Origin: an uncultured Aliarcobacter sp. | GTDB taxonomy: Bacteria; Campylobacterota; Campylobacteria; Campylobacterales; Arcobacteraceae | Direction of reading: 5' to 3' | Assembly: GCA_963664305.2 (NCBI GenBank) | Contig: CAXXLV010000001.1 | Coordinates: 288,001-352,000, forward strand | DNA: 64,000 nucleotides | Shown: positions 7,769-36,019 of the stretch, piece after piece | Layout of the letters: the number at the start of each line of letters is the position of its first letter | Numbering within the stretch: the first letter of the stretch is position 1 | Translations under genes and position numbers: made by a program | The notes under the pieces: model-generated | The model's database searches: none | Told to the model about the DNA's origin: nothing | The model's input: the letters and a program-made list of their open reading frames with translations, nothing else

Positions 7769-7801
7769 TACGATTTTTATGCGATTATTTTTTTATATTA
7801 T
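7769..7801 (+). promoter_or_regulatory. Tandem box 1 (TACGATT-TTTA-TGCGATT) plus -10-like TATTAT, upstream of the pheA paralogue
   Basis: Box at 7769-7786 (one mismatch in the first half), 9-bp spacer, hexamer at 7796-7801. Confidence 0.7.
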
Positions 7802-7834
7802 AGTTAATAACTAGAATGTAAAAAGGATTAATTT

Positions 7835-8845
7835 ATGAATAACAAAGAAATAAACAAAATTAAAGAAATTGAAGAAATCGATAAAACAATATTAAAACTT
7901 TTTACGAAAAGAAATAAAATAATAAAAAACTCTTCTGATTTAAATTTTTCATCTTATGATAAAAAACTCATAGAGAAAATTAGAGATGATAATTTTCTTA
8001 AATTATTAGAAATATCACCAAAACCTTTAGATGAAGAAAATGAAAAAATAGTTTATTTAGGGCCAGAAGGAAGTTATACTCAAGAAGCAGCTATTAATAA
8101 ATTTGGGATAGATAATAATTATTATTCTGTAAATTCTATAAAAAATATTTTTTATGAAGTAAGTGAAAATAGAGCTAAATATGGAATTGTTCCTATTGAA
8201 AATAGTTCAAATGGAATGGTTGGAGATACAATAAATTCATTTAATACTTATAATTTAAATATCATAGGTGAAACTGTTATTGATATTCATCATACACTTG
8301 TTAGCAATTGCAAAAAAATTGAAGATATTAAAATAATTTATTCAAAAGATATTGCTTTTGACCAATGTTCAATTTTTTTAGAGAACTATCATCTAAATGA
8401 AGTACAATATGAATATGTTGATTCAACAACAAAAGCAGCAAAATTAGCTTCTCAAACACCTAATAGCGCAGCAATATGTTCTAATCTTGCAGCAAAAACA
8501 AATAATATTCCTATTTTATTTAGTAATATTGAAGATAATAAAGATAACAAAACTAGATTTTTTGTCATAAGTAAACAAATTACAAAAAAAACAGAAAATG
8601 ATAAAACTTCTATAATAGTTCAATTACCAAATAAATACGGATGTTTAATTGACTTTTTAAATGATTTTAAAGAACATAAAATAAATCTAAATAAAATAAA
8701 ATCCCACATCGTAAAAGGTATTTCAACTTTTTTTATAGAATTTGATGGGCATAAAAATGATTCAAATATAAAAAAAGTTTTAAATAAACACAAAAAGAAC
8801 ATAAAAGTTTTAGGTTCTTATAAAAAAGAAATTGAAGATATTTAA
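7835..8845 (+). CDS. pheA: Prephenate dehydratase (PheA-like) with a shortened, degenerate chorismate mutase domain
   Basis: YLGPEGSYT, GIVPIENS, NKTRF catalytic motif, C-terminal ACT domain ending VLGSY. Confidence 0.8.
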   Translation: MNNKEINKIKEIEEIDKTILKLFTKRNKIIKNSSDLNFSSYDKKLIEKIRDDNFLKLLEISPKPLDEENEKIVYLGPEGSYTQEAAINKFGIDNNYYSVNSIKNIFYEVSENRAKYGIVPIENSSNGMVGDTINSFNTYNLNIIGETVIDIHHTLVSNCKKIEDIKIIYSKDIAFDQCSIFLENYHLNEVQYEYVDSTTKAAKLASQTPNSAAICSNLAAKTNNIPILFSNIEDNKDNKTRFFVISKQITKKTENDKTSIIVQLPNKYGCLIDFLNDFKEHKINLNKIKSHIVKGISTFFIEFDGHKNDSNIKKVLNKHKKNIKVLGSYKKEIEDI

Positions 8846-8848
8846 GCC

Positions 8849-8881
8849 TGCGATAAATTTGCGATTGAATTTCTATAATCT
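8849..8881 (+). promoter_or_regulatory. Tandem box 2 (TGCGATA-AATT-TGCGATT) plus -10 region, upstream of the porin
   Basis: Box at 8849-8866; TATAAT at 8874-8879 overlaps TAATCT at 8876-8881 (9-bp spacer). Confidence 0.8.
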
Positions 8882-8943
8882 TCTCCTTCATAGTTCTAAT
8901 TTTTTAGAATTATATTACTGTAAGGAATAAGGAGAGAATAAGT

Positions 8944-10137
8944 ATGAAAAGAATTACAAGATTAAGTACAGTTGCTATATTAAGTTTATCTTCTATGGTA
9001 ACTTTTGCAAATGCTAGTGAAAATTTAGCAGATGCATTTACAAATGGTAAAATTAAGGGTCAAATAAAATCTGTTTACTCTAATTCAAATTTCTTAGGAA
9101 ATGTTAAATCAGATGACATAACAACTATTGGTGGTAGTCTAGGTTTTATAACAGATGATTTTTATGGATTTAATGCTGGTGCTACATTCCAAACTTCTCA
9201 TGTGTTAAATCAAGATAATAATAACAATGTTTTTAGTTCTGATTTAGATGCTCAAGGTTCAGTTTTATCAGAAGCTTATGTTAGTTATAAATTAGCAAAT
9301 ACAAGTGCTAAAATGGGTAGACAGTTTATTTATACACCTCTTGTAAGCAGTGCTATAGATGGAAAAGCATCTGAAAGTTTAATAAAAGATTCTTTTGAAG
9401 CTTATGTACTTACAAATACAGATATTCCAGATACAACATTAATGGGAAGTTATATTGATAAATATCAAGCAAAAGCTACATCTGGAGATATTAGAAGCTT
9501 TGAACAATTTGAAGATGGGGCTTATACTTTTTATGCAAAAAACACATCAATAAAAGATTTAACATTACAAGCACAATATCTTAAAGTAAATGCAATTGCA
9601 ACTGATTCGGATATACAAAATTTATATTTCCAAGCTGATTATATGTTAGCTGGGCATACATTATCAGCTCAATATTTATCATCAACAGATGAATCAAAAG
9701 CTTCAAATTTAGAAGATGCAGAATTATTTGGACTTAAAGCAACTGGACCAGTAGGTTTAGGAAAATTAGGTTATGTAGTTGCATATAATTCAAGTACAAA
9801 AGATGGAGAAGTAAATTTAGGAAAAGGTAGTGGAACTACAGATACACCTTTTACAGCTATGCCAGTTAATGGTGGAGGTGTTCCTTCAAGAGCGGATACT
9901 GATACTATTGTAGGAGGATTAATTGTACCTGTATATGATGTTACTTTTGTAGGATATGCTGGTAAATCATTCTCAAAAACTCATGTTCTTGGTGATGTAA
10001 CAGCTACAGGAGCAATGGCAATTTATCCATTCTATAAAAACTTTTTATTAAAAGCTAATTATGAACATGTTGAAGTTGAGAAAGTAATTACTGAAAATAC
10101 TGATGTATCTAGAATTTATTTATCTTACTCATTTTAA
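8944..10137 (+). CDS. Outer-membrane porin (OprD / Campylobacterota MOMP-like)
   Basis: Signal peptide, LADAFTNGK.KG start, LSEAY, GRQ..TPL, C-terminal RIYLSYSF beta-signal. Confidence 0.8.
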   Translation: MKRITRLSTVAILSLSSMVTFANASENLADAFTNGKIKGQIKSVYSNSNFLGNVKSDDITTIGGSLGFITDDFYGFNAGATFQTSHVLNQDNNNNVFSSDLDAQGSVLSEAYVSYKLANTSAKMGRQFIYTPLVSSAIDGKASESLIKDSFEAYVLTNTDIPDTTLMGSYIDKYQAKATSGDIRSFEQFEDGAYTFYAKNTSIKDLTLQAQYLKVNAIATDSDIQNLYFQADYMLAGHTLSAQYLSSTDESKASNLEDAELFGLKATGPVGLGKLGYVVAYNSSTKDGEVNLGKGSGTTDTPFTAMPVNGGGVPSRADTDTIVGGLIVPVYDVTFVGYAGKSFSKTHVLGDVTATGAMAIYPFYKNFLLKANYEHVEVEKVITENTDVSRIYLSYSF

Positions 10138-10153
10138 TGTAAGGATTTAATAA

Positions 10154-11200
10154 ATGATATCTATAAAACAACCAATACTTGGTATTTTATCTACTATTTT
10201 AATAGTTGCTTTTTCATTAATAATTAGTACAAGCTTTGAATTATCAACATTTGGTTCATGGATTACTTTAATTATTATGGTGATGGTACCAGTACAAATA
10301 ATAATGACTTTATTTATGGGAAATTCTGTTTGTCAATTTATAGATGTTTTATCTCAACCCAAAAAAGCTTTAATAAACTCAGTTATTATGATTAATTTTG
10401 GGGTAATTGTATTTGTAATTATTCAATTATTATTTGAAGGTTTAGGTTCAAAACCAACACCATTTTCTATAATGTATTGTATTAATACAGTTATCATAAC
10501 TTTTTGGTTGGTTGTAGTATTTGCTGGTTGGCCTATTAGATTAATCTCAGATAAAGTAATAGCAGGAATTGTTCTCTTAGTTAGTGCAATGGTAATTAGT
10601 TATATAACTTTTAAATTACTGTATGATTTTTCAGATTTTGAACCTGCTCCATTTTATAATGTAATGCTAGATCCAAAAGGTTTATTTGGAGCATGGGATA
10701 TATTATCATTTATGGTAACAACATTAGCAGTAATTTTAGCTTGGGTTATATTAGATTTTTTCCCAATCGGACCAAAACCTGAGAATCCAATATTAAGAAT
10801 TTTAACTGTTACTTTTCCAGTATTAATAGTTACTTATATTTTTTGGAAATTAGGTATAAATTATATTGGCGATCCAGTTAAATTTATGGTGGATGTTACT
10901 ATTTCTTTTATTTTTGGAGAGTTTATTGTTTTACTTATGATGGAAACAGCACCCGTTCAAGCAGTAAAACAACCAATAAAAGGAATAATTTTAATTATTC
11001 TTGCAATTATTCTTGCATTTATTTGTAATTTTATTTATACACATGTAATAACAAGTATATATCCTCAAATAAGTTCGGGCGCGCCGACTTATGATATAGA
11101 AATGTGGAAAGCATCAGCAATGTTAGCAATAACATTTCCAATATTTGTTCTATTTAGTCAGATATTCAACTTCTGGCCATTAAGAGATAGTTCAAAATAA
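10154..11200 (+). CDS. Polytopic inner-membrane protein, putative aromatic-compound permease
   Basis: About 10 TM segments; internal repeats (LSQPKKALI / VKQPIKGII; FAGWP / FNFWP); 16 bp after the porin gene. Confidence 0.5.
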   Translation: MISIKQPILGILSTILIVAFSLIISTSFELSTFGSWITLIIMVMVPVQIIMTLFMGNSVCQFIDVLSQPKKALINSVIMINFGVIVFVIIQLLFEGLGSKPTPFSIMYCINTVIITFWLVVVFAGWPIRLISDKVIAGIVLLVSAMVISYITFKLLYDFSDFEPAPFYNVMLDPKGLFGAWDILSFMVTTLAVILAWVILDFFPIGPKPENPILRILTVTFPVLIVTYIFWKLGINYIGDPVKFMVDVTISFIFGEFIVLLMMETAPVQAVKQPIKGIILIILAIILAFICNFIYTHVITSIYPQISSGAPTYDIEMWKASAMLAITFPIFVLFSQIFNFWPLRDSSK

Positions 11201-11297: not shown

Positions 11298-12583
11298 TTA
11301 TATATTTATATATGAAAATATATATAAAACTACAATACTAATAAAATACATCTTAAAACTATAAAATATATTTAATTTAAATATCTCTCTTGCATCAAAA
11401 TTATATCTTGAAACTATAGTCAGATTAGAACCACTAAAAGGTGAAGTAGCAACTGTAGTAGCCCAAGCCATCAAAAAAACTAATGCCAATAAAGTATGAT
11501 TTACTTGATTTAATAAATCTCCAACTATTGCAATTGTAATAAGAGGATGAATTCCTATAAATCCTAAAAAAATAAAAATTGCTAATAAAATAGAAGCAAT
11601 AATCCAATCAAATTGTTCAAATGGAAGTTCTAAATTCAATCCTAAAAGAAATGAGCTCATTATAACACCAAACATTCCAGCAACTAAGAAAAGTGAAATT
11701 TCCCCTTTCATTTTGGAAGTTCATAAAAAATATGAGTTTTTATCTCAATTATTGCTTTTTTCATATTTATTTTAATTGGTAAAATTACAAATACCAATAA
11801 AAATGAGAATAGAGATATCAAAATAATAACTTTAACATTAGGGAAAAAGTAATTTGTCATTAATACTAAAAAAGCCAAAGACAAAGGTAAATATAAACTA
11901 CTTAAAGAAATAGGATAACCTTCAAATTCATTTATTAAATTTTTTTTATCATTTTTCACTTCAATATAAGTAATTAAAAATCCAATTATAGACAAGATTA
12001 ATCCATTTATTAAAATTATTGAAGTATTTAATTTTGGCATATAAACAACAGCTGCTGCAAATGCAACAAAAAAAGGTGACCAATATGCATCATTTGCAAA
12101 AGAACGGCTAAGCAATATGATTTGAGTATTTGTTAAAATGTTTTTCTTATACATCTTATCTGCAATTAAAATAAGAGCTGAAAGATTTATAACTGATGCA
12201 AATAAATGAACTCCTAAATAAGTTTTTATAAATGAATTTATACCTTTTGGTGGAATTTCATTTATATCTGTTTTATTTGGAATTGCTATTAACCTCAAAA
12301 AACCAACTCCAATTAATAATGTAATTAAATATTGATTTACCGTAAAAATATTATAAAAATTTATTGTAAAAGAATTAAATAAGCATATTAATAAAAAAAT
12401 AAAACTCAACGATAATAAAATCAACAAAAGTTTTTTCTTTTGTAAAGTTTTAAAAAATATAAAAAAAGAAATCCAAGCACATAAACCTGAAATTATCAAT
12501 AAATCTTTATAAAAAAAGTATGCACAAATACTTAATATAAAAGACAAAAATATTAAGATACCTATTAAATATGAACTATTCAT
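11298..12583 (-). pseudogene. Membrane transporter-like gene split into 291-aa and 137-aa ORFs, probably by a 1-nt frameshift
   Basis: Junction on the minus strand reads CCA AAA TGA AAG GGG; one extra A gives CCA AAA ATG AAA GGG GAA and a continuous 428-aa hydrophobic protein (…YELPK-MKGEISLF…). Confidence 0.6.
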
Positions 12584-12585
12584 AA

Positions 12586-13461
12586 TTAAATAAATAAAAA
12601 ATAAAGAACAATTGGAATTATAAATAAACTAGCTATATTTCCAATTGCAACTATAGAAGCAACTGCTCCTGAATCATGACCATATTTTTCAGCCATAAGT
12701 GAATTTACTACAGCAGGTGGCATTGCACCAAAAAGTATCAATAAACTCTTTTGCAAAGGTGTGTATTCAAAAAAATATATTGCAATTAATGCCATAATTA
12801 TTCCAGAAAGAGGACAAAGAATTGCCCCAAGTATTCCTATTTTTAAATGAGAAAAATTAATATTAGATAACCTAACTCCCAATGAAAACAAAATCAATGG
12901 AATAGAAATTTGAGATAACATAATCAATGGTTCATTAAATAATTGTGGTAAATGAAATCCAAAATAGTTAAATAACAAACCAATAATTGTTGCTAAAATC
13001 ACAGGATTTTTAAATAGATTTATTAGTTTTACTTCTCCACCATACATTACTATCGCTATTGTGAATTGCCCAATAATTTGAATTATAGATAAGGCTATAA
13101 ATAAAGCCATTGCTTCATGACCAAAAGCAAATAAAGCCAAAGGTAAACCCAAATTTATAGAATTATTAAACATCATAGAAGGTAAAAAAGTTCGTGGATT
13201 GATTTTTAAAATTTTTGTTAATGGATATAAGATTAAACCTGAACCTAAAACCACTATAACTGCACCAAATGAAAAACTTGTTAATGTTGTAATGGAAGGT
13301 AATTTTTCACTTATTGCATAAAAAACCAATATTGGTATAAAAACATCAAGATTTATTTTATTTGGTATTTCCATACTAACTTTTTCTTTTTTAGCATAAA
13401 AATATCCTATAAGTGCAATCAATATTACAGGGAATATAATTTCAAAAATTTTAAGTACCAT
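12586..13461 (-). CDS. AEC (auxin efflux carrier / malate permease) family transporter
   Basis: FNNS.NLGLPL..FAFG, FKNPVI, IPL.LFSLG, AMPPAV motifs. Confidence 0.85.
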   Translation of the reverse strand: MVLKIFEIIFPVILIALIGYFYAKKEKVSMEIPNKINLDVFIPILVFYAISEKLPSITTLTSFSFGAVIVVLGSGLILYPLTKILKINPRTFLPSMMFNNSINLGLPLALFAFGHEAMALFIALSIIQIIGQFTIAIVMYGGEVKLINLFKNPVILATIIGLLFNYFGFHLPQLFNEPLIMLSQISIPLILFSLGVRLSNINFSHLKIGILGAILCPLSGIIMALIAIYFFEYTPLQKSLLILFGAMPPAVVNSLMAEKYGHDSGAVASIVAIGNIASLFIIPIVLYFLFI

Positions 13462-13478
13462 TTTTAAAATTCTTCAAA

Positions 13479-14417
13479 TTATTTTTTATAATAAATAAAT
13501 TCTAACAATGTAGAAATTGTTCTTGTATAGGGAGCATCTAAACCTAAAGCTTCACAATTTTTTATTACTACATTACAAATTTCATCTAATTCTAATTCTC
13601 TATTATTTTCAACATCTACTAACATTGATGGTTTTATTGAATCAAATTTTGTAATTAATTCAAACATTTCATCTACTTCTTCTTTTGGAATTTTTATTCC
13701 TTTATTTAAAGCTGCTTGAGCTGTTTCATTCATCAATCCATAAACAATTTTTGATAACTTTTCATGTTGCATAATAACACCAGTTTTTTCTCTTAAAAGT
13801 GCACAAATTGCATTTACACCATTATTGATTATCAATTTTTTCCAAAGTTCAAGATTTATATTTTGAGATATTTGTGTTGGAATTTTTGCTTCGTTAAATA
13901 CCTTTTCTAATTTTTGTAAAAATATTTGATTTTCTTCAGTTTTTTCAATAGCACCTAAAATTGTTTCAGCTGTTCCAGTAGCACTAATAAATGCAGGACT
14001 TACAATATGAGCGCCTATTTTTCTCGTAAGTCCTGCAATTATATGTGTTTTAATCAAATTAGTAGAAAGGATCTCTTCGTTATCTACACCATTTTGAAGT
14101 GAGATAACGTAGGGAATGTTTTTTTCATTACCAAACCAACTCTGCAAATGTTTTGATAATGATATAGTTGAAGTCGATTTAGTGGCAATTAGAACAGCAT
14201 CAAAAGAAAAAATGTTCATCTCTTTAACTTGGGAGAGTGAATGTGAGATAACTTTTTTTTGAAAATGAAATTCTGGGTGATGCAACTTCAACTCATTTTG
14301 CTGTAAAGCTTCTAACTGCTTTCCTCTTGCAACAAAGACTACATCATGTGCTGCCTCGATTAATCTTGCGCCAAAATAAGAGCCTATACCACCAGTACCC
14401 AGAATTAAAAATTTCAT
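13479..14417 (-). CDS. panE: 2-dehydropantoate 2-reductase family (PanE/ApbA-like)
   Basis: GTGGIG Rossmann motif, SLQNG, LWKKL..N, PSML.D...RELE.D. Confidence 0.8.
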   Translation of the reverse strand: MKFLILGTGGIGSYFGARLIEAAHDVVFVARGKQLEALQQNELKLHHPEFHFQKKVISHSLSQVKEMNIFSFDAVLIATKSTSTISLSKHLQSWFGNEKNIPYVISLQNGVDNEEILSTNLIKTHIIAGLTRKIGAHIVSPAFISATGTAETILGAIEKTEENQIFLQKLEKVFNEAKIPTQISQNINLELWKKLIINNGVNAICALLREKTGVIMQHEKLSKIVYGLMNETAQAALNKGIKIPKEEVDEMFELITKFDSIKPSMLVDVENNRELELDEICNVVIKNCEALGLDAPYTRTISTLLEFIYYKK

Positions 14418-14431
14418 TTTATACCTTTTGA

Positions 14432-15253
14432 TTATTTCTCAGAAAAGAAGTTTAATAATAGATTATTAAATCTGTCTTTATGTTCAATTTGCGTCCAATG
14501 TCCACATTGTCCAAAAACATGTAATTGAGATTTTAATATAAGTTGATTTAATCTAATTGAATTTTGTAAAGGAATAACTTTATCTTCTCTTCCATGTATA
14601 ATTAAAACTTCTTTATCAATTTTTTTGATGTCATTTTCACAACTCATCATAGAATCAACACCATTTTGTCTAGGAGCTGGGAACATTGAACCAAATGATT
14701 CTTGGAATCCTGGTCTAATACTTGCTTCATATCTCATCTTTGCTAAGTCATCAGTTACAATACTTCTATCATAAGCAAAAATATCAAGTAATTCTTTCAT
14801 ATTTTCAATACTTGGAGTATATCCCCATGCTTTATCTAAACCATAAGTCAAATCAAAATAAACCCCAACGGCACCCATTAAAACAACTTTATTAAATCTA
14901 TTTGGATATTTAATAGTTAAAGCTAAAGCTAAAGCTCCACCAAAAGAGTTACCAACTAAATTTGTTTTTTCAATACCTAATGCATCCATTAAATCAATAG
15001 TTTGTTGAACCCATGTATCCATATTATATGTAATACCTTCTGGTCTATCTGAGTATCCAAACCCAACCATATCAGGAGCAATAACTCTGAATTTTTCAGC
15101 TAAAACTGGCATAGTACCTCTCCAATTAGCATAAGCTGAAACACCTGGTCCTGAACCATGAATAAACATAATTGGTTCACCACTACCTAAATCATGATAA
15201 TTTGTATTAAAACTTCCTGTTTTAATATTATTTGCAATTTCTGGATTTGACAT
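14432..15253 (-). CDS. dmpD: 2-hydroxymuconic semialdehyde hydrolase
   Basis: HGSGPG oxyanion motif, GNSFGG nucleophile elbow, HGRED, CGHWTQIE. Confidence 0.9.
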   Translation of the reverse strand: MSNPEIANNIKTGSFNTNYHDLGSGEPIMFIHGSGPGVSAYANWRGTMPVLAEKFRVIAPDMVGFGYSDRPEGITYNMDTWVQQTIDLMDALGIEKTNLVGNSFGGALALALTIKYPNRFNKVVLMGAVGVYFDLTYGLDKAWGYTPSIENMKELLDIFAYDRSIVTDDLAKMRYEASIRPGFQESFGSMFPAPRQNGVDSMMSCENDIKKIDKEVLIIHGREDKVIPLQNSIRLNQLILKSQLHVFGQCGHWTQIEHKDRFNNLLLNFFSEK

Positions 15254-15271
15254 ATTTTCTCCTTAATAATT

Positions 15272-16276
15272 TTATAAATTGAACTCTTTTGCTAAGAGTT
15301 CATAAGATTTCATTCTATCTTCAAATGAGTAAGTTACATTTACAATCATAACTTCCTCTACACCATACTCTAAAGCTAATTTTTCTATTTTTTCTTTGCA
15401 CTCTTTTGGAGTTCCTAAAATCATAGAATCTAACGTTTCTTTATAATAAGCTTTATCTTCAAAACTTAATTCTTCATACAATTTTTCAACATCACTTGGG
15501 CTATGTAATCCATCACGAGTAGGATGTCTAAATGCCTGAACTTTCCAATATGTATGCGAACATGCTATCTCTTGCGCTTTTTCTTTTGAATCAGAACAAA
15601 TACAAGCAACAGCAATCATTGCTTTTGGTTTTTTAAAATTTTTAGATGCTTTAAAATTTTTTTTGTAACTATCTATAATTTGTATTGGTCTATCATGAGT
15701 TCCAATAAATAGTGCTAAACAAAAACCAGCACCTAATTTTCCAGCTAAAATACTACTTCCATCACTAGAACCAAGTAAATAAACAGGTGTAGAATTAACA
15801 TTTTTAGGAGATAGATTTACTCCATAAAAATAATCATTTTTAGGAACTTTATCATCCAAATAATTTATAAGATCATAGGCTTTTTTAGTATAATCTCCAC
15901 TATTTGAATTATGTAAGGCACGAGCAGCTAAAAAATTAGCGCCATTTGCTCTTCCAATTCCTAAATCAATTCTATTATTATGTAAAGCACTTAGTGTATT
16001 AAAAGTTTCAGCAACTTTAAATGCACTATAATGATTTAACATAACACCACCACTTCCAACTCTAATAGTTTTAGTTGCATCTGCAATTGTACTTACCATT
16101 ATTTCTGGACATGCACTTGCATATCCAGGAGTGTCATGATGTTCTGCACACCAATATCTGTAATAACCTAATTCTTCACATCTAGTTGCTAGTTTTATAG
16201 TGTCAAATAAGGCTTCTTTATCTTCTTTTCCATCATGTATTGGTGATTGATCAAGTACACTTAATTTTAAATTCAT
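15272..16276 (-). CDS. Luciferase-like (LLM class) flavin-dependent oxidoreductase, YhbW-type
   Basis: LSVLDQSP, RYW.AEHH, IRVGSGGVML.HY, RIDLGIGRA, LLGSS. Confidence 0.85.
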   Translation of the reverse strand: MNLKLSVLDQSPIHDGKEDKEALFDTIKLATRCEELGYYRYWCAEHHDTPGYASACPEIMVSTIADATKTIRVGSGGVMLNHYSAFKVAETFNTLSALHNNRIDLGIGRANGANFLAARALHNSNSGDYTKKAYDLINYLDDKVPKNDYFYGVNLSPKNVNSTPVYLLGSSDGSSILAGKLGAGFCLALFIGTHDRPIQIIDSYKKNFKASKNFKKPKAMIAVACICSDSKEKAQEIACSHTYWKVQAFRHPTRDGLHSPSDVEKLYEELSFEDKAYYKETLDSMILGTPKECKEKIEKLALEYGVEEVMIVNVTYSFEDRMKSYELLAKEFNL

Positions 16277-16284
16277 AATAAATT

Positions 16285-16476
16285 TTATTTACCTAACTTT
16301 TTGGCACTTTTCCCACCAATACCAAAGTGTTGTTTAGGCATTTCATTTATAATTACCCTAACACTTTCAATTGGTGTATCAAGAGATTCAGCAATCGCAA
16401 TACTTACTTTCTCAATCAATGCCTCTTTTTTTTCGTCACTTCTACCTTCAATAATATTTATTGTTGCAATTGGCAC
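16285..16476 (-). CDS. dmpI: 4-oxalocrotonate tautomerase
   Basis: 63 aa, catalytic Pro1 after Met removal, EGRS.EKK, VRVII.E...HFGIGG; GTG start. Confidence 0.92.
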
Positions 16477-16485
16477 GAGTTTTCC

Positions 16486-18302: not shown

Positions 18303-18303
18303 G

Positions 18304-19188: not shown

Positions 19189-19203
19189 TATTCCTTAAAA
19201 ATT

Positions 19204-19305: not shown

Positions 19306-19310
19306 TATCT

Positions 19311-26453: not shown

Positions 26454-26460
26454 TTCTATT

Positions 26461-27267: not shown

Positions 27268-27283
27268 GATAATCCTTTAAAAT

Positions 27284-27316
27284 AAAAAAAGATACAACTT
27301 TATAGTTGTATCTTTT
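27284..27316 (-). terminator. Intrinsic terminator at the end of dmpP
   Basis: Stem AAAAGATACAACT / AGTTGTATCTTTT (27287-27316) with a 4-nt loop; U-run on the minus strand. Confidence 0.7.
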
Positions 27317-28373: not shown

Positions 28374-28374
28374 T

Positions 28375-28734
28375 TTATGCTCCTACTTTACCTATCAAAT
28401 CTGGTGTTTTAAAAGTGATAAATGATTTATGTCCAACACCATTTTCTTTTAAACTTTTTGAAAAATCAGGTGTTATAACTTTTCCATCAACTTCCCAAAT
28501 AACTTCTGTTTTATCAAAATCTAAATCTTTAAAATCTAGTTCAATTTTATATGTTACTGGAATTAAATCAGAAATTATCGCACCAAAAGGCATTTCAGGA
28601 GGTAATGGAAATGCTCTTGGAGAGCTAACTACTCTATGTCCATACCAATATAGATACACTAATTGATTTCCATGAAATTTATCTACACTATCTTTCATTA
28701 TGATTGGATATTCTCCAATTGATTGAATTGCCAT
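28375..28734 (-). CDS. dmpO: Phenol hydroxylase gamma subunit (P4)
   Basis: D..DKFHG.QLVY..W, PP.MPFGA, SL.ENGVGHK...F.TP.L.G; operon position. Confidence 0.9.
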   Translation of the reverse strand: MAIQSIGEYPIIMKDSVDKFHGNQLVYLYWYGHRVVSSPRAFPLPPEMPFGAIISDLIPVTYKIELDFKDLDFDKTEVIWEVDGKVITPDFSKSLKENGVGHKSFITFKTPDLIGKVGA

Positions 28735-28745
28735 TTTTTCTCCTT

Positions 28746-30260
28746 TTATTTATTTCTTAATTTGTTCCACATAGCTTCATCAGGAGAACCTATATAATCC
28801 ATATTATCTACACCATGTTCTATTTTGTACCATTTTAAAACTTCTGGAATAGTAGCTCCACCACAGTTTCCTTGGAATATTTGATGTGGAGGTAACCAAG
28901 CTTGAACATATTTTTCAGGCTGTGCATCAAATATATCTTTACATCCATCAGAACAAGTATGGAAAATTTCTCCATTATATTCAGATGTTTTATGTGTATA
29001 AACATGTGGATTTCCACCTTCGATATCTGTAAATCCTAATGGAATTTGACAAGTTTGACAAATCAAAGGTAAAGTTTCAGAATAATATCTTTCCCCTTTT
29101 TCTTGTAAAGCTATATATCTTTCAAACATTGGTCTATAATATTTATCAAAAGTATCTGGATATTTTTGACTTAACCAATTCATTTTTTCTTCGTCTGGCA
29201 TCCAAATATGAATATTTGCAGCATTTGTATGATTATAGAAAATATTCCATACTTGATGAGATAAATGCCCTTTTTCAGCAATAATTGTATTTACTAATTT
29301 TTCAGGAATTTTAATTCCATATTTTTCTAAATCTTTATATAAGGCCATACAGTTTTGTTCGATATATAATTCAACTGCTTCTGCCCAAGATGTTGGAGAG
29401 TTAGGTAGCATATAATCCATCATCATAGCTACAAGACCTAACATTCTGTAACCTCTCCATAACCATTTATCCATCCATTTTTGAACAATTGGAACATTAT
29501 CTGCATCTTGTTCTAACATGAATTTAATAGCTGATAATCCTAAAGTCATATGTCTTGATTCATCACTTTGTGCAGAAAAACCAAATGTAACTGTTGCCAT
29601 ATCTCCATTATAAGCAGCTCCACTCATAAATGGAACAAATAATAAACTTGTTAATACAAATTCAAAAGAGAATGAAATAGCTGTTAAATATTCAAAAGGT
29701 CCTGCTGTACTTGCATCATCTCCAAATGATTTTGGAACTGATAAATACCAAACTCTATCATGCATTGTTCTAAAATTATGAAAACCATTAAAATATTTAT
29801 TATAATGACTCATTGTATGTACTTGAGTTTGGAAATGTCTTAACTCATCAATAGCTTGCATTTGGCATGCAATTGAAGCACCCTCACCTTTAAAAGCACG
29901 TGCTGCGTGAGAAAAACCTTGAACAACTTTATATTCAAGTGGTGTTACACCTGTTAAAAATAGTTTTAGTGCATTTACATATCTTGCATCTGAAATATTT
30001 TTTTGTGCATTGTTTTGAGCAAAAGCATCAATAATTGAATAAAGTTTTTTATCTTTTTCAGCTTGTAATTTCCAATAAGAATCCATTGTCATTCTAAATG
30101 GATCTTCCCATGCTTCCCAATCATGAATTTTCAATCCTTCCATTTTTAAAAAAGGAAAAACATCTTCTTCTTTTTGGTAAGTTGGATCCCAACCAAGTCT
30201 AGTCATATATTTATATGCATCTTTTTTATTTAATCTTTTTTTTCTAGGTTCTACACTCAT
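28746..30260 (-). CDS. dmpN: Phenol hydroxylase large (alpha) subunit, diiron centre
   Basis: WEDPFR, IDELRH and SDESRH diiron motifs, DRVWYLSVPKS, YHS-like C-terminus, IFQGNC. Confidence 0.96.
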   Translation of the reverse strand: MSVEPRKKRLNKKDAYKYMTRLGWDPTYQKEEDVFPFLKMEGLKIHDWEAWEDPFRMTMDSYWKLQAEKDKKLYSIIDAFAQNNAQKNISDARYVNALKLFLTGVTPLEYKVVQGFSHAARAFKGEGASIACQMQAIDELRHFQTQVHTMSHYNKYFNGFHNFRTMHDRVWYLSVPKSFGDDASTAGPFEYLTAISFSFEFVLTSLLFVPFMSGAAYNGDMATVTFGFSAQSDESRHMTLGLSAIKFMLEQDADNVPIVQKWMDKWLWRGYRMLGLVAMMMDYMLPNSPTSWAEAVELYIEQNCMALYKDLEKYGIKIPEKLVNTIIAEKGHLSHQVWNIFYNHTNAANIHIWMPDEEKMNWLSQKYPDTFDKYYRPMFERYIALQEKGERYYSETLPLICQTCQIPLGFTDIEGGNPHVYTHKTSEYNGEIFHTCSDGCKDIFDAQPEKYVQAWLPPHQIFQGNCGGATIPEVLKWYKIEHGVDNMDYIGSPDEAMWNKLRNK

Positions 30261-30281
30261 AATATCTCCCTTATTTTTGTA

Positions 30282-30557
30282 TTAGTTATTCCAATAAACG
30301 ATGAATTCATCATCTGTTTCTTCTACTTGTCCACCTAAAGAAATAAGTACTAATTGTAATTCTTCAGGATCCCAATCTCTTCCTAAAGCTTCTGATACTG
30401 TAGAAGCTTTTACAGTAATTTTTTCTGGTCTCTCAATTTGAATCATTGCTGGTTTATTAGTAATTATTACACCTTCATTATCTTCTTTGATTGCTTCTGC
30501 TATTGTTCTTCCATCTTCTGTAGATTGAAGACATAATAATGCTATACTTGATGACAT
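30282..30557 (-). CDS. dmpM: Phenol hydroxylase activator (MmoB/DmpM family)
   Basis: LQ..E..R.I.EAI..DN, PAMI, LGRDWD...L...LISL.G.V.E.DD. Confidence 0.92.
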   Translation of the reverse strand: MSSSIALLCLQSTEDGRTIAEAIKEDNEGVIITNKPAMIQIERPEKITVKASTVSEALGRDWDPEELQLVLISLGGQVEETDDEFIVYWNN

Positions 30558-30581
30558 ACGTTTCCCTTTTATTATTAATTT

Positions 30582-31574
30582 TTATAAATTTATTTCACAG
30601 TTTTTTAATCTAACTATTAACTCTGTTTTAACATTAGATATAAGTTCTTTAGGATTGTTTGAAAATGAAGCTAAAGGTTCCATCGCATTTTCCATAATCT
30701 CTATGTCTTCTTTTACCCAACTAGTTAATAAATCTCTATTTTCAGTTGATTCTTTTGCCATAACTTTTATAACACTATCTAACCATTTAACTGTTTCTTC
30801 ATACCATGAAACGATAAATTCATTTAACATAGAAATAGTCATTTCATCATTTTGCGCTAACTCTTTTGAGAATTCATTAATCATTAAAGGAATTACAAAA
30901 CCATCAAAAACAACATTTTGTTTAACAAATAATCTAATTGGATCTTTTTCAACAAAAGAATCTTCAACTGCTTTTCTTAAACCTTGCCAATTAGGACAAT
31001 TTAACCAAGCATCTTTTCCAGCTTCTAATTTTGAAACATCATTATCAGAAAGAAGTAGAATTATTTTTGTTATGTGTTGAGCCATTCCAAGTCTATCTTC
31101 AGCTTGAAATAAACAAGCACTCATCATAGCCGTCCCATAAACTCTATCTACAATACAAAGATTATTCATATTTGCACCATACTCATAATGTCTTAATGGA
31201 GTTAAAAAATCATATACCTTTTGTAAATTATCTTTTTTTATAAAATTAACTAAACCTCTTTTTTCAACAAATTCAAAACTTTGTTCATTTGCAGCATTTT
31301 GAGAAGCTCTTGTTGATACATAAGACATATAATGAAATTTTCTTGGATCCAATAAGTCATACCAATCATTCATTTTGATTTTTGTTCTATTTTTATCATA
31401 TATTTCAAATTCAGGTTCCCATTGTGGCCTATAATGAAAATTCTCAGTTGGTTGTGCATCATACATAGCTTCTTCATATCTTGAAGCTGGTCTATCTTCA
31501 CCTAATCTTTGTGCAACATGACCAAAAGTATGTCTTATTGGTTCTATTTCAACACTAGCTATATTTAATTCCAT
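30582..31574 (-). CDS. dmpL: Phenol hydroxylase beta subunit (P1)
   Basis: P.RHTF.HVA.R.G, ASRYEEA, NFHYRP.W, DW..L.DPR, PLRH.E.GANMN, W...P.WQGLR. Confidence 0.93.
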   Translation of the reverse strand: MELNIASVEIEPIRHTFGHVAQRLGEDRPASRYEEAMYDAQPTENFHYRPQWEPEFEIYDKNRTKIKMNDWYDLLDPRKFHYMSYVSTRASQNAANEQSFEFVEKRGLVNFIKKDNLQKVYDFLTPLRHYEYGANMNNLCIVDRVYGTAMMSACLFQAEDRLGMAQHITKIILLLSDNDVSKLEAGKDAWLNCPNWQGLRKAVEDSFVEKDPIRLFVKQNVVFDGFVIPLMINEFSKELAQNDEMTISMLNEFIVSWYEETVKWLDSVIKVMAKESTENRDLLTSWVKEDIEIMENAMEPLASFSNNPKELISNVKTELIVRLKNCEINL

Positions 31575-31588
31575 ATTTTCTCCTTAGT

Positions 31589-31822
31589 TTAATTTAACCC
31601 ATATTTCCAATTTTCATTGTCAATTAATAATTCATCTTCTTGTTCTTTTGTAAAAAACGATACTCTATTATTTTGACAAAATTCAATGAAAGCTTTGTAT
31701 GGTAAAAGTAATTCAACATTCATTACAGCTTCACCTACTGCAAAATTAAATTCAACAAATCCATTATCTTTTATATTTATGATTTGTACAAATTTTTTTT
31801 CATTTGGCATAAGTTCATACAT
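31589..31822 (-). CDS. dmpK: Phenol hydroxylase assembly subunit (P0)
   Basis: GFVEF.FAVG....VEL.LP..AF.EFC..N.V motif; first gene of the operon. Confidence 0.88.
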   Translation of the reverse strand: MYELMPNEKKFVQIINIKDNGFVEFNFAVGEAVMNVELLLPYKAFIEFCQNNRVSFFTKEQEDELLIDNENWKYGLN

Positions 31823-31868
31823 AAAAAACTCCTAATTAAATTACTCTTTTAGTTTCAAGAACAAGTGA

Positions 31869-31901
31869 ATACTATGTAAATTAAATCGCAAATTATTCGC
31901 A
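31869..31901 (-). promoter_or_regulatory. Tandem box 5 (TGCGAAT-AATT-TGCGATT) plus -10-like TAGTAT, upstream of the phenol hydroxylase operon
   Basis: Box at 31884-31901 on the minus strand, 9-bp spacer, hexamer at 31869-31874. Confidence 0.8.
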
Positions 31902-31957
31902 AAAAAAAACAAAAAAAATAAAATTGGATAAAATACATACAAATAAAAGGATAGAAT

Positions 31958-33259
31958 ATGAGTTCAATGAAAAGGCGCATTTTTGATAATAAAAATATTC
32001 CTACAAAATTTTCAATTTTCTACTTGATTGTTGGAATTATTGGAATAATTTGTATTGATAGATTTTTAAATATTTATTTCACTTATAATAAACCAACTGA
32101 AGGAACATCTTCTACATTCAATTTTTTATTTCTTTTTTTACTATTTAGTGTAATTGTTCTTTTTTTGATTTTAAATCATATGCAAAAAGTTATTTTAAGA
32201 ATTGATAAATCATATAAAGACTTAAAAGAGAAAGATAAAGAAAGATTAATGCCCTATGAATTTGCATTAAATAATTCTGTTGATGGTATTTACTGGTTTA
32301 CTATCGATGCAAAAATTGTTTACTTAAATGATGCAGCTTGCAAAATGTTAGGTTATGAAAAAGAAGAGTTATTAGGAAAATATCTTGAAGTGATGGATAC
32401 AAATTTCAATCGACAAACTGCTGTTGATATTATGCATAAAATAAAAAATACAGATAATTGGATATTAGAAACAACTCAAAGAAAAAAGAATGGTGAAACT
32501 TTTCCTGTTGAAGTTTCAGGTCATGGTTTTACTTATGGTGGGCAAGAATATATTTGTGCATTTGGAAGAGATATTAGTCAAAGACAAGAGATAAACAAAA
32601 AAATCACAAATATAAATTTAGAACTTCAAAAATCTTTAGATGAAAAAGAGATTTTATTAAAAGAGATTCACCATAGAGTTAAGAATAATATGGAAATTAT
32701 CTCATCTTTATTAGCAATGCAATTAAGACGAGCAAAAGATGATGAAGTAAAATATATATTAAAACAAAGCAAAAGTAGAATCAACACTATGGCATTGGTT
32801 CATGAATTCTTGTATTTAGGAGAAAACTTAGCTTATATAAATCTTCAAGATTATATAAAAAGATTAGTTCAAGATATAAAAGAGTTATACATTTCTCAAA
32901 ATACAAACTTAGAAGTTGATTTACATATTGACAAACTAATTTTTTCAACAAATAGATGTATTCAAATTGGAATGGTGATACATGAACTTTGTGTAAATGC
33001 TTTAAAATATGCTTTTAAAGAAGATAGAGAAAATTTACTTTGCATACACATAAAAAAATCTGAAGATAAAATCCATGTAAAAATCAGAGATAATGGAGAA
33101 GGATTAAAAGACATAAATTCTCTGTATAAAAGTGAATCTATTGGTATGCAATTAATTCACTCTATTGTAGAAGATCAATTAGATGCAAACATTGAATTTA
33201 GAAATAACAATGGATTAGAGTGTAATATTATATTTTCAAAAGATGAGGATGAAGAATGA
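31958..33259 (+). CDS. Sensor histidine kinase 2 (2 TM, PAS, HisKA_2, HATPase), paralogue of kinase 1
   Basis: Same architecture as kinase 1; EIHHRVKNN, HELCVNALKYAF, canonical DNGEG. Confidence 0.9.
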   Translation: MSSMKRRIFDNKNIPTKFSIFYLIVGIIGIICIDRFLNIYFTYNKPTEGTSSTFNFLFLFLLFSVIVLFLILNHMQKVILRIDKSYKDLKEKDKERLMPYEFALNNSVDGIYWFTIDAKIVYLNDAACKMLGYEKEELLGKYLEVMDTNFNRQTAVDIMHKIKNTDNWILETTQRKKNGETFPVEVSGHGFTYGGQEYICAFGRDISQRQEINKKITNINLELQKSLDEKEILLKEIHHRVKNNMEIISSLLAMQLRRAKDDEVKYILKQSKSRINTMALVHEFLYLGENLAYINLQDYIKRLVQDIKELYISQNTNLEVDLHIDKLIFSTNRCIQIGMVIHELCVNALKYAFKEDRENLLCIHIKKSEDKIHVKIRDNGEGLKDINSLYKSESIGMQLIHSIVEDQLDANIEFRNNNGLECNIIFSKDEDEE

Positions 33260-34014
33260 ATAAAATTAAAATATTAATAGTTGAAGATGAATCTATTATT
33301 GCATTAAACCTTAAAGAGACTATTCTTGATTTAGGATACGAACCTTGTGGAGTAGCACCTAATAAATGTAAAACTATGAAAATTCTTGAAAAAGGAATTA
33401 TTCCTGATTTGATTTTAATGGATATTTATCTAAAAGGACCTACAACAGGAATTGAACTTGCGAAAGAATTAAAAACTTTATTTCCATATATTCCTGTTGT
33501 TTTTTTAACGGCAAATTCAGAAGTTAGTACAATAAAAAAAGCATCTGAAACTTTTGCATATGGTTATATTCTAAAACCATACAAAAAATCCAATTTACAT
33601 GCTGCTATTGAAATAGCTTTGAAAAAATCTGCAGAAGATAATATTAAAATGAAAAAACTTGAAGCTACTGAAAATGTTAATAAAACTTTAATTCATCAAC
33701 TTGAATTAAATAATGAGCAAAGATCTCGTACTATACAATTAAAATATGGATATTTATTTGATAAAGAAAAAGAAATTTTATATTATGGTGATGAACCAGT
33801 AAAATTGACTACAAAAGAGACTAAAATCATAAAATATCTTTGTGAAAGCCCTGGTCACAATGTATCTCAAGAACAACTTGAATATGCAATTTGGCAAGAT
33901 GAACCAGCAGGTTATGCAGCTTTTAGATCTGTATTATTCAGACTTAGAAGTAAAATCCATAAAGATCTAATTTCTAACCAAAATAATACTGGTTATAAAA
34001 TAGAACTTTTATAA
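33256..34014 (+). CDS. Response regulator 2 (REC plus winged helix), paralogue of regulator 1
   Basis: 252 aa like RR1; shares the EPAGYAAFRSVLFRLR recognition-helix region. Confidence 0.9.
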   Translation: MNKIKILIVEDESIIALNLKETILDLGYEPCGVAPNKCKTMKILEKGIIPDLILMDIYLKGPTTGIELAKELKTLFPYIPVVFLTANSEVSTIKKASETFAYGYILKPYKKSNLHAAIEIALKKSAEDNIKMKKLEATENVNKTLIHQLELNNEQRSRTIQLKYGYLFDKEKEILYYGDEPVKLTTKETKIIKYLCESPGHNVSQEQLEYAIWQDEPAGYAAFRSVLFRLRSKIHKDLISNQNNTGYKIELL

Positions 34015-34026
34015 GATAGGTATTTT

Positions 34027-35910
34027 TTACCTATCCATATTTATAATCTCATTTTTCCCTAAAAAACTTTTATTATTAGCTTCACTAAATATATTTTTTG
34101 CAATTTTATCAGTTTGAACTGCAATATCATGTGTTTGGTCCATAATTTGACTATTCTGTTTTGTTTTTGAATCTAATTCATCAATTATATTATTTACCTC
34201 CAAAATACCCTTTTCTTGTTTCATACTTAAATTTGTAATTGTCTCTATCATCGTAGATGATTTATTAATATTTTCTAAAAGCTCGGAATAGCCTTTAATC
34301 ATATTACTTGATATATTTTTCCCTTCATTTGCTTTTATAGTTGCATTTTCAACTAATTGTTTTATCTCTTTAGCTGCATCTGCACTTCGACTTGCAAGAT
34401 TTCTAACTTCTCCTGCTACAACAGCAAATCCTTTTCCACTTTCACCAGCTGTTGCAGCTTCAACTGCAGCGTTAAGTGATAATATATTAGTTTGAAATGA
34501 AATTTGGTCAATAATCATTATTGCTTCATTTATTAAATTTACTTGACTTGTTATTTCATCCATTGAATTTGATGTATTTAATGCTAGACTTTGTCCTTCT
34601 TTTGCTGAAACATTTAACTCATTTGCATATTTACTTAATTCTGAAATATTTTCATTACTTTCCACAATCACAGATGTGATATCTTTTAAAGAAACATTTG
34701 TTTCATCCAATAACAAAGTTGTATCTTTTGCCGATTCATTTAATTTATTTATACAGTCTATTAATTTATTTGAAGCACTATCTAATGTAATTCCTCTAAG
34801 TAAAGATTGTTTCAATAATTCTGAAATCTCTTCTGTTAAAAAATTAATATTTTCTATAAACTCAGCTATTTCGCCTTTTTGGTTATTAATTTCAACTTTA
34901 TTTATAAACTTATAACTACTAAACTCTTTTAGAACAAAAGATATTGATTCAATATTTAATCTCAATTCATTTATCATCGAATTAAAAGCATTACATAAAC
35001 TCTTTAATTGACTATTATTTGGGATTTTTTCAACCTTAACATTTAAATAACCTCTATTTATTTTTGAAACAACATCTAAAACATTTTCAACTGTTTCATT
35101 ATCTTTTTGTATACCATTTCTTATTTTGATTATATTTTCATTTATAATTTTTGACATTTTGCCAAATTCATTTCTATTACTCTCTTTCAATAATTCTATA
35201 TTGTCCGATTCCTTTGATAAATATTTAAAAAAAGACAATAATCCATTTTGAAAAGTTTTTATAGAGTGTTTAATATCTTTATACACTAGATATGATATTG
35301 ATACTGCAAAAATCAAACTAATTATAAAAATTATAAATATAATTTTTAGTATATAATTTTTTACATTTTGAGAATTTTCATAAAAAATTTTTCCATTTTT
35401 CTCTGATAATTTTGTTAATTCATCCATTTGTTTATATAAAATTGAATCATGTGGAAGAGCTTTTTCTTTTATTATTTTTCCAGCAAGAGCCATATTTCCA
35501 GATAACATAGCATCTACAACTTCTGTTCTTATTGGAATCCAAGTTATAAATTGTTTTTTTGCTTCAATAATTTTACTTTTATCTTCTAATAAAGAATTTT
35601 CTAATACATTAAAAAGTTCTAACAATTCCTTATCCATTTTACTTATTTTATCAATTGCTAATTGTTTTTCTTCATTTGAAGGAGTTAAAGCTATATCTTT
35701 TACTGCACTAATTTCTAATGCAATTTTAAAACTTATAGCTTTAGTTATATTACTAACTTGATAGGGATAATTATAAAACTTTGAAATTATCATCGATAAA
35801 TCTTGAATTTTAAATATCGAATAACAACTAATAAAAATCAACATACTTATAAGGATTATAAATCCTGAAATAATTTTAGAATTAATACTTAAATCATTTA
35901 TTTTGTTCAT
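34027..35910 (-). CDS. Methyl-accepting chemotaxis protein
   Basis: Two TM helices around a helical periplasmic domain (4HB-like), HAMP-like region, [30 protein letters not shown] hairpin. Confidence 0.92.
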
Positions 35911-35936
35911 TCACTAACCTTTAATTTAATTGTGAA

Positions 35937-35969
35937 ATATTATTTAATTCTAATCGCTTTATATTCGCA
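35937..35969 (-). promoter_or_regulatory. Tandem box 6 (TGCGAAT-ATAA-AGCGATT) plus -10-like TAATAT, upstream of the MCP
   Basis: Box at 35952-35969 on the minus strand, 9-bp spacer, hexamer at 35937-35942. Confidence 0.8.
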
Positions 35970-35986
35970 ATATACAAAAATTTAAA

Positions 35987-36019
35987 AGCGATTAGAATGC
36001 GATTTTTTTTATATATATT
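35987..36019 (+). promoter_or_regulatory. Tandem box 7 (AGCGATT-AGAA-TGCGATT) plus -10-like TATATT, upstream of SDR-leuB
   Basis: Box at 35987-36004, 9-bp spacer, hexamer at 36014-36019. Confidence 0.8.

Follow-up and report, generated by a model that had tools for sequence, protein, structure and literature searches.

What joins the genes of an aromatic-degradation island that lie scattered, on both strands, over 28 kb of DNA? The question arises in a 64,000-nt stretch of an uncultured Aliarcobacter sp. (contig CAXXLV010000001.1; G000:C1:288001-352000, hereafter the window, to which all coordinates refer unless another contig is named), in which a phenol hydroxylase operon, a catechol meta-cleavage operon, a porin, a chemoreceptor and second copies of three metabolic genes are found together with two pairs of a sensor kinase and an OmpR-type response regulator (HK1-RR1 and HK2-RR2). 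Seven transcription units of this island, about 28 genes, are each preceded by the same 18-bp direct repeat, here called the box, which we regard as a predicted operator of RR1 and RR2. Each unit would be a single transcript, judging from the strand and the spacing of its genes.

Sequence, spacing and rarity of the box

The box is a head-to-tail repeat of two half-sites with an 11-bp period, of the form WRCGAWW-N4-WGCGAWW and with the consensus (T/A)GCGA(T/A)T-N4-(T/A)GCGA(T/A)T. Scanning the window with the pattern WRCGAWWNNNNWGCGAWW gives seven matches against 0.01 expected (100 dinucleotide shuffles, with at most one match in any of them), at the positions and on the strands at which the first-pass annotation, made from the letters of the stretch alone, had placed its seven boxes (Table 1). 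One half-site of the pheA box is weak, and the boxes of the short-chain dehydrogenase (SDR) and of the methyl-accepting chemotaxis protein (MCP) stand back to back with 17 bp between them. All seven are intergenic and co-oriented with the next gene, as had been claimed, at a distance of 39 to 77 nt from the start codon. One start had to be amended for this: the list of open reading frames puts the beginning of the SDR gene at an ATG at 35997, inside the box, and the start common to the 264-aa orthologs, which has a ribosome-binding site, is at 36045, so that the SDR box is intergenic too.

What follows the box is equally regular. A TAnnnT hexamer stands exactly 9 nt after it in 7/7 cases, the distance that had been described, and since TAnnnT starts at 3.4% of genome positions, the chance of finding it seven times out of seven at a single spacing is about 5e-11. 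Taken as -10 elements the hexamers fall short of the consensus (TAATCT, TAAAGT, TAACAT, TAGTAT), and an extended TG is missing from all of them. A scan of 22800-24600 for the sigma-70 consensus finds no -35/-10 pair at the promoters of the xylT or the mdh box; it returns 13 promoter-like sites, against 11.8 in shuffles, and no terminator-like sites, and its one informative outcome is that the box promoters are not called. A third tandem half-site, 11 bp up- or downstream, is present in exact or near-exact form in only 2 of 71 sites and is not a general feature.

Furthermore, the box is confined to the island. In the whole genome of 2,780,884 bases (8,000 of them N; 27% G+C) the pattern again has seven matches, all of them the island boxes, and its absence from the intergenic regions of core genes, noted by eye in the first pass, thus extends to the entire assembly; an equal frequency in unrelated promoters, which had been named there as a finding that would speak against a regulon, does not occur. 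The bare core pair GCGA-N7-GCGA is found six times genome-wide, always in the island, against 0.68 expected from 1,947 occurrences of GCGA. With W flanks required, six GCGA pairs have the N4 spacing, and never more than one pair turns up at any of 21 other spacings; without the flanks, a few other spacings have 5-8 pairs genome-wide. When at most one core mismatch is tolerated and TAnnnT must follow after 9 bp, there are nine matches genome-wide, the seven boxes and two sites on contig C2. One of the two lies within a 484-aa coding frame. The other is intergenic (TGCTATG-CTAT-TGCGACT at G000 C2:1399988-1400005, plus strand, with TAAGAT after 9 nt) and has a poor first half-site; it is probably background, and neither of the two is a regulon candidate of any weight.

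That the boxes are not regulatory at all, and are instead copies of a duplicated promoter cassette or chance arrangements in AT-rich DNA, has nothing in its favour beyond the abundance of TAnnnT in such DNA, and we give it virtually no credence. Against it stand the expected numbers of 0.01 per window and 0.68 per genome and the flanks of the seven boxes, which are unrelated to one another; across genera, moreover, the cores are fixed while spacer and flanks change.

Box, regulator gene and targets across Arcobacteraceae

The independent test of linkage between box and regulator is provided by scans of whole genomes with the box pattern. Within the genus, a regulator ortholog (E <= 1e-100) is found in 10 of 37 genomes, and these ten hold 42 boxes, 36 of which lie within 30 kb of the regulator gene on the same contig; three others are on small contigs of their own, before porin or xylT orthologs, and the last three are far away. 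The 27 genomes without the regulator have 10 boxes between them, and 19 of the 27 have none. An even draw of 151 Arcobacteraceae genomes from 22 genera contains the regulator in 30 genomes belonging to nine genera. Every one of these 30 has at least one box and 26 have at least three, 111 boxes in all, where the reversed control pattern has 17 matches; in the 121 genomes that lack the regulator there are 69 boxes, with none in 77 of them and at least three in five. A comparison with orthologous islands had been proposed as a check of the regulon, and its outcome is that box and regulator gene co-occur across the family.

We then asked which genes the box precedes in 32 related loci (574 kb), whose regulators are 62-94% identical and whose records are labelled Aliarcobacter, Arcobacter, Halarcobacter, Poseidonibacter, Campylobacterales and, in one case, as a metagenome-assembled genome (MAG) of Sulfurospirillum. 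The 64 boxes of these loci stand before dmpK (19), an xylT-like ferredoxin (16), mdh (6), SDR (6), genes for an SBP_bac_3 protein of ~240 aa (6) and for a Peripla_BP_6 protein of 429-444 aa (5), a separate Iso_dh gene, which they directly precede (2), and tauE (1); behind the remaining three no open reading frame was found. Porin orthologs are preceded by boxes in G019, G021, G002, G010 and G009 and MCP orthologs in G019 and G027, and in G002 a box is also found before a second, toluene-monooxygenase-like diiron hydroxylase (26% identical to DmpN). Even the weak pheA box has its counterpart, with one or two core mismatches and the same 9-bp distance to TAnnnT, in 5/5 relatives with the pheA-porin arrangement, a conservation from which we take it to be real. 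The earlier idea that the box links scattered genes is borne out in this way, as it precedes orthologs of the same genes in other genera in which the spacer and the flanks have diverged.

The conserved part of these promoters can be read from the sites themselves. Among 69 unique sites from this and the related loci, with the -10 positions left free in the search, the three fixed positions of the hexamer are T in 58, A in 67 and T in 68, and TT at +4/+5 after the box is found in 64 and 66; the T before and after the cores is also conserved. Footprint alignments, one of 16 dmpK and one of 14 xylT promoters, show no variation in the box cores, the TT or the -10, and the 4-bp spacer and the flanks differ from promoter to promoter. 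The first base of the half-site (T, A or C) varies within a single class of target.

Because the genes of the island share their inheritance, co-occurrence by itself does not identify the protein that reads the box, and some other factor might do so, an alternative sigma factor for example, or the LysR-type regulator at 6755-7582, which is encoded divergently from the pheA box; the connection with the two-component genes would then be no more than shared island inheritance. We think this very improbable. By tblastn, no LysR ortholog (E <= 1e-20) is found in any fetched locus, including those that have pheA and porin boxes, and sites of LysR regulators are dyads, not direct repeats. Against a sigma factor speak the sigma-70-like hexamer downstream of the box and the lack of any sigma factor gene in the island. 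The response regulator is the one DNA-binding protein found beside boxes in all the genera sampled.

Some promoters of the related loci carry conserved sequence besides the box. In the xylT promoters a block TAGTTAAAAGGT at about 23304-23327 (minus strand), shared with 13 related promoters (alignment A5, columns 99-125), lies just past the predicted transcription start; it contains an imperfect inverted repeat, TTAAAAG ... CTTTTAA, and could be an operator for a second regulator. RNAalifold gives no supported structure for the alignment of the xylT promoter and leader (-1.0 kcal/mol, no compensatory pairs). The dmpK promoters share ATTnTAnC 26-33 nt upstream of the box (31927-31934; alignment A4, columns 18-25), which reads on the other strand as a -10 of TAAAAT/TATAAT type for the divergent HK2 gene (31929-31934), with 27 nt between this hexamer and the box. 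From this location the dmpK box would lie at about -40 to -57 of the kinase promoter, and autoregulation of HK2 through the dmpK box is therefore possible as far as its position goes. The layout at HK1 is similar, with its start codon 59 nt from the mdh box.

One related locus departs from this arrangement. At G027:C1:2372250-2372942 (loci L010 and L037) a porin-type box and its -10 stand directly before an RR2 gene that lacks the first 56 codons; the dmp and meta genes were not seen in this locus, and the MCP and SDR boxes are still present 5 kb off. The arrangement resembles the outcome of a deletion in which the island lost its catabolic core.

Pieces of the locus are also met in environmental DNA. 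For 31200-33200, 14 DNA-type runs from 10 studies hold between a quarter and seven tenths of the sampled words (two full holders excluded), and these runs are tar-pit, oil-facility, oil, hydrocarbon, sludge, wastewater and aquatic metagenomes; near-identical locus pieces are met in those from tar pits, oil facilities, hydrocarbon, sludge and wastewater. Assembled contigs of four wastewater RNA-type runs over 21000-37500 consist mostly of pieces less than 90% alike, without starts, ends or strand, and among the sequencing runs searched there was no raw-read RNA run of the organism.

Two atypical OmpR-type regulators and their predicted action on the box

RR1 and RR2, 71% identical to each other, each combine a receiver with a Trans_reg_C domain (bit scores in Table 1; Pfam cut-offs 30.2 for PF00072, 26.2 for PF00486 and, for the kinases, 22.3 for PF07568), and on the basis of these two domains they are members of the OmpR/PhoB family. 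RR2, modelled with AlphaFold on the basis of 30 orthologs (pLDDT 86.5), is composed of the receiver, a long helix and a winged helix, the last with a four-stranded sheet (residues 159-177), helices 186-197, 205-213 and 220-233, and a hairpin wing (239-249). Its top Foldseek matches are KdpE-DNA, MtrA, PrrA, CosR-DNA, DrrB, VanR, RpaA, PhoP-DNA and PmrA-DNA, and several of the top structures are bound to direct-repeat DNA. Domains, model and structural matches are thus in keeping with the OmpR/PhoB winged-helix type that the first-pass annotation had assigned to the regulators of the island.

RR1 and RR2 are nevertheless atypical in their receiver, their linker and their kinase partner. NCBIfam places the receiver near the PhyR type, and EutV and Rv1626 are among the best PDB sequence matches of the regulator. 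In the model one uninterrupted helix of 46 residues (111-156, window 33586-33723; block-mean pLDDT 73-93 over 111-160) follows the receiver, with 2 residues between it and the winged helix; the short flexible linker after receiver helix 5, which is typical of the OmpR/PhoB family though not strictly defining, is not found there. In EutV (PDB 6ww6/6wsh) the receiver and the long C-terminal helix superpose on model residues 1-152 (TM 0.68 normalised to the target, rmsd 2.3-2.4 A); the C-terminal domain that follows is an RNA-binding ANTAR domain in EutV and a DNA-binding winged helix in RR2. The long helix of the model suggests a coiled-coil dimer. The subfamily comprises 161 clusters at 90% identity, nearly all of 252-254 aa, and its public names are generic or, for some orthologs at JGI, "PdtaR".

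The kinases, 61% identical to each other, begin with two hydrophobic helices separated by a very short loop; a single PAS domain comes next, then HisKA_2 and an ATPase domain. The H-box HHRVKNN is found in both, and from this order of domains they are classed as HisKA_2/HWE-type kinases. A second and distant set is found at G000 C2:708813-711725, with two regulators that share 35% identity with RR2 and a HisKA_2-type kinase that shares 33% with HK2.

Residues E10, D11, E12, D56, T85 and K107 are invariant in 30 orthologs, and so is the recognition-helix (helix 3) stretch EPAG..AFRS.LFRLR.K, in RR1 and RR2 types alike; RR1 and RR2 of the island differ in helix 3 at one residue. The invariant recognition helix matches the invariant GCGA cores of the box. 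From all the evidence taken together we consider the box most likely the operator of RR1 and RR2, and with so little difference between the two recognition helices, each regulator should be able to read every box.

A division of the boxes between the regulators, with RR2 acting on the TGCGA...TGCGA type (dmpK, xylT, porin) and RR1 on those with AGCGATT half-sites (mdh, SDR, MCP and the binding-protein genes), is suggested by the layout of the island and its relatives, in which dmpK always has HK2-RR2 as its divergent neighbour and mdh has HK1-RR1. Genomes with RR2 only (G028, G032, G010, G002) keep the dmpK and xylT boxes, and G010 and G002 the porin boxes also, and have no mdh box, and the boxes of mdh and the binding-protein genes occur where the RR1 type is present. 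We hold such a division to be unlikely, since helix 3 differs at a single residue and EPAG..AFRS.LFRLR does not vary in the 30 orthologs, the half-site cores are identical in both types of box, and the first base varies within one class of target.

We read the box further as an activator site for phosphorylated RR1/RR2, because its geometry is that of the pho box, because the -10 hexamers fall short of the consensus, with no extended TG, and because the sigma-70 scan is silent at the xylT and mdh box promoters; we are less confident of activation as the sign of the control than of the site itself. At the pho box a PhoB dimer binds head to tail and replaces the -35 contact. The resemblance to this geometry had been pointed out before, and it holds in each part: head-to-tail repeat, 11-bp period, end 9 bp before the -10. 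In the scheme that we propose, the membrane-anchored HK1 or HK2 would sense an aromatic substrate or intermediate, with its PAS domain presumably on the cytoplasmic side, given its position after two hydrophobic helices, and would phosphorylate Asp56 of its regulator, as the conserved residues suggest. Two winged-helix domains would then sit head to tail on the two GCGA half-sites, one helical turn apart, and if transcription starts 7 nt after the hexamer, the 9-bp gap would put the box at about -39 to -22, the normal place of the -35 element. By analogy with PhoB, the bound dimer may recruit RNA polymerase to promoters with a moderate TAnnnT -10, so that seven promoters would be switched together, those of dmpKLMNOP with the permease, the meta operon, the porin, the chemoreceptor, the second-copy mdh, pheA and SDR-leuB. 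The two kinases would in this scheme bring two inputs to one regulon.

Inducibility of this kind of pathway is on record for Arcobacter sp. CAB, in which the meta-pathway genes are expressed on catechol and little or not at all on acetate, according to excerpts of the report (PMC3656443), an observation that concerns the genes and not the box. It fits de-repression as well as activation, and RR1/RR2 could bind the box as repressors that block the promoter until a signal relieves them. The box would overlap the polymerase contact region (about -39 to -22), and promoters of the phylum can work without a -35. We regard repression as quite improbable all the same: the -10 hexamers are imperfect, with no extended TG, the geometry is that of PhoB-type activation, and in solved and characterised members of the family direct repeats that end ~10 bp before the -10 are known as activator sites. 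PceP of Sulfurospirillum is described as an activator in PMC7755780.

Several points weigh against the box as an activator operator of RR1/RR2. A parallel coiled coil would make the dimer two-fold symmetric, a poor fit to a direct repeat unless the junction to the winged helix is flexible. The absence of a -35 is no proof that an activator is needed, as -35 elements are generally weak in Campylobacterota. No p-value is given for the co-occurrence of box and regulator because related genomes are not independent of each other, and the boxes of the 32 related loci, which were fetched by way of the regulator gene, test the conservation of targets and are not an independent test of linkage. Three of these 32 loci (L064, L073, L082) have no box in the fetched DNA even at one mismatch, and in genus g29 (G064, G085) only one of six boxes is on the regulator contig, ~12 kb from the gene in G064, with none in G085.

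The seven units and their place among known systems

Pfam and NCBIfam confirm the gene labels of the first-pass annotation, with one correction: pheA, mdh and leuB of the island are second copies and not the core genes (Table 1). The other genomic copies of these three genes have no box.

Unit 5 is, by its domains, a multicomponent phenol hydroxylase with all six components in one same-strand row: DmpK (77 aa) matches PF06099, L and N PF02332, M PF02406, O PF04663, and P combines Fer2, FAD_binding_6 and NAD_binding_1. Unit 3 begins with a ferredoxin and a catechol 2,3-dioxygenase (TIGR03211, 408.8 bits against a cut-off of 320.2) and continues with an HbpS-like protein, an aldehyde dehydrogenase, a hydratase, an acetaldehyde dehydrogenase, an aldolase, a decarboxylase-like protein, an LLM oxidoreductase, a hydrolase, an ApbA-like reductase, a membrane transporter and two proteins of no assigned family; its Pfam domains include Aldedh, Abhydrolase_1, FAA_hydrolase (twice), HMGL-like with DmpG_comm, and AcetDehyd-dimer. 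With dioxygenase, ferredoxin, semialdehyde dehydrogenase and hydrolase, hydratase, aldolase and acylating dehydrogenase present, its gene content is that of a catechol meta-cleavage pathway.

The G+C content of the catabolic genes (14001-24000 and 28001-30000) is 30-34%, against 23-25% in the adjoining regulatory and transport genes, as would be expected if the enzyme genes had come from a donor with less AT-rich DNA. Rfam finds five tRNAs in the window, none of them in the island.

Table 1. Boxes, transcription units and two-component genes of the island. Positions refer to the window; those of a box run to the end of its -10 hexamer.
Feature	Position	Strand	Details
pheA box	7769-7801	+	TACGATT-TTTA-TGCGATT; 9-nt gap; -10 TATTAT 7796-7801
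Porin box	8849-8881	+	TGCGATA-AATT-TGCGATT; 9-nt gap; -10 TAATCT 8876-8881; serves porin-like and 348-aa genes
xylT/meta-operon box	23335-23367 (box 23350)	-	TGCGATT-TTTA-TGCGAAT; 9-nt gap; -10 TAAAGT 23340-23335
mdh box	24353-24385 (box 24368)	-	AGCGATT-AGAA-AGCGATT; 9-nt gap; -10 TAACAT 24358-24353; divergent from HK1
dmpK box	31869-31901 (box 31884)	-	TGCGAAT-AATT-TGCGATT; 9-nt gap; -10 TAGTAT 31874-31869; divergent from HK2
MCP box	35937-35969 (box 35952)	-	TGCGAAT-ATAA-AGCGATT; 9-nt gap; -10 TAATAT 35942-35937
SDR-leuB box	35987-36019	+	AGCGATT-AGAA-TGCGATT; 9-nt gap; -10 TATATT 36014-36019
Unit 1, prephenate dehydratase (pheA), second copy	7835-8845	+	51% identical to C1:488002-489027 copy
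Unit 2, Opr-like porin (397 aa) and 348-aa protein of unknown family	8944-11200	+	
Unit 3, meta-cleavage row	11298-23282	-	14 same-strand genes, ~12 kb
Unit 4, malate dehydrogenase (mdh), second copy	23381-24328	-	64% identical to C2:761980-762912 copy
HK1, sensor kinase	24445-25698	+	PF07568 90.4 bits, PAS_9 49.1 bits; HK1-RR1 divergent from mdh box
RR1, OmpR-type response regulator, 252 aa	25695-26453	+	Response_reg (PF00072) 80.9, Trans_reg_C (PF00486) 37.5 bits
Unit 5, dmpK, L, M, N, O, P and TauE-family permease	26461-31822	-	dmpK 31592-31822
HK2, paralogous PAS/HisKA_2 kinase	31958-33259	+	PF07568 91.2 bits; HK2-RR2 divergent from dmpK box
RR2, OmpR-type response regulator, 252 aa	33256-34014	+	PF00072 72.6, PF00486 41.2 bits
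Unit 6, methyl-accepting chemotaxis protein (MCP)	34027-35910	-	four-helix-bundle sensor
Unit 7, SDR and 3-isopropylmalate dehydrogenase (leuB), second copy	36045-37921	+	leuB 36854-37921, 97.7% identical to C2:378603-379667 copy

Among described systems, PhoB and the pho box of Escherichia coli share with the island element two 7-bp half-sites placed head to tail with an 11-bp period and an AT-rich 4-bp spacer, an end ~10 bp before the -10 by which the element takes the place of the -35, several scattered promoters, and a regulator made of a receiver and a winged helix. The island differs in its half-site TGCGATT, in kinases of PAS/HisKA_2 and not HisKA type, in the PhyR/ANTAR-like receiver and the 46-residue helix of its regulators, and in serving aromatic catabolism and not phosphate; neither the half-site sequence of a pho box nor the phosphate genes of a Pho regulon are found.

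The dmpKLMNOP operons of Pseudomonas and its relatives are classically under sigma-54 activators of the DmpR type. These systems switch the same enzyme genes (dmpKLMNOP and the meta operon) by substrate, and they differ in that DmpR, a single-protein sensor of the NtrC family, works on sigma-54 promoters from sites upstream of them; the island has no gene for a regulator of the sigma-54 type. In TodS/TodT and StyS/StyR, catabolic operons are turned on by PAS kinases that sense aromatics (toluene, styrene). Unlike the island, these systems have NarL/FixJ-type regulators, with inverted or pseudo-palindromic sites far upstream, and large double-sensor kinases.

The closest described case in the phylum, as far as excerpts of PMC7755780 describe it, is PceS/PceP of the organohalide-respiration region of Sulfurospirillum. 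There the OmpR-family regulator PceP binds CTATW-N17-CTATW, as shown by electrophoretic mobility shift assay, in most of the eight transcription units this direct repeat lies over part of the -35 box, and tetrachloroethene induces the region (PMC7755780). An OmpR-family regulator encoded in an accessory region and a direct repeat at the -35 are common to both systems, as is the phylum; going by the same excerpts, the motif, a PceS kinase with seven membrane helices and tetrachloroethene as the inducer set the Sulfurospirillum region apart from the island.

The box had not been recognised as a described motif in the first pass, and the literature searched gives no other picture: it yielded no description of the box or of OmpR-type control of phenol hydroxylase in Arcobacter, and the half-site string returned only primers and unrelated matches. 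One candidate for an Arcobacter dmp report, PMC6249378, was set aside, since the dmp genes in the excerpts of it are those of Marinobacter and not of Arcobacter. In essence, the sequences describe a system of a known kind whose motif and predicted regulon are new and whose regulator is atypical.

We advance one wider proposal, tentatively and with more doubt than belief: that the regulators form a previously undescribed OmpR-type subfamily, so far seen only in Arcobacteraceae and the one MAG labelled Sulfurospirillum, in which an ANTAR/PhyR-like receiver, a long, rigid, coiled-coil-like helix and a winged helix are driven by PAS/HisKA_2 kinases, and in which two sensor pairs, with diverged PAS domains and the same recognition helix, converge on one box. 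If this is true, the asymmetric direct repeat would have to be read by a symmetric coiled-coil dimer, and catabolism, uptake and chemotaxis would belong to a single regulon that integrates two chemical signals, e.g., a hydrocarbon or phenol substrate and catechol. For Campylobacterota it would also be the first description of a transcriptional circuit that governs the aerobic degradation of aromatics.

For the family, the box offers a testable regulatory code for phenol and catechol degradation in Arcobacteraceae. An 18-bp pattern joins 28 kb of genes that annotation would not link, among them the porin, the chemoreceptor, transporters and the second copies of mdh, pheA and leuB, and the genes so linked predict what the cell adjusts when it eats aromatics. 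The architecture of the regulator raises the structural question of how such a dimer reads a direct repeat, and the box with its regulator pair could serve as a compact phenol/catechol switch for low-GC hosts. If the predicted assignment is right, phenol hydroxylase operons, classically run by sigma-54, can in these bacteria be run by an OmpR-type two-component system.

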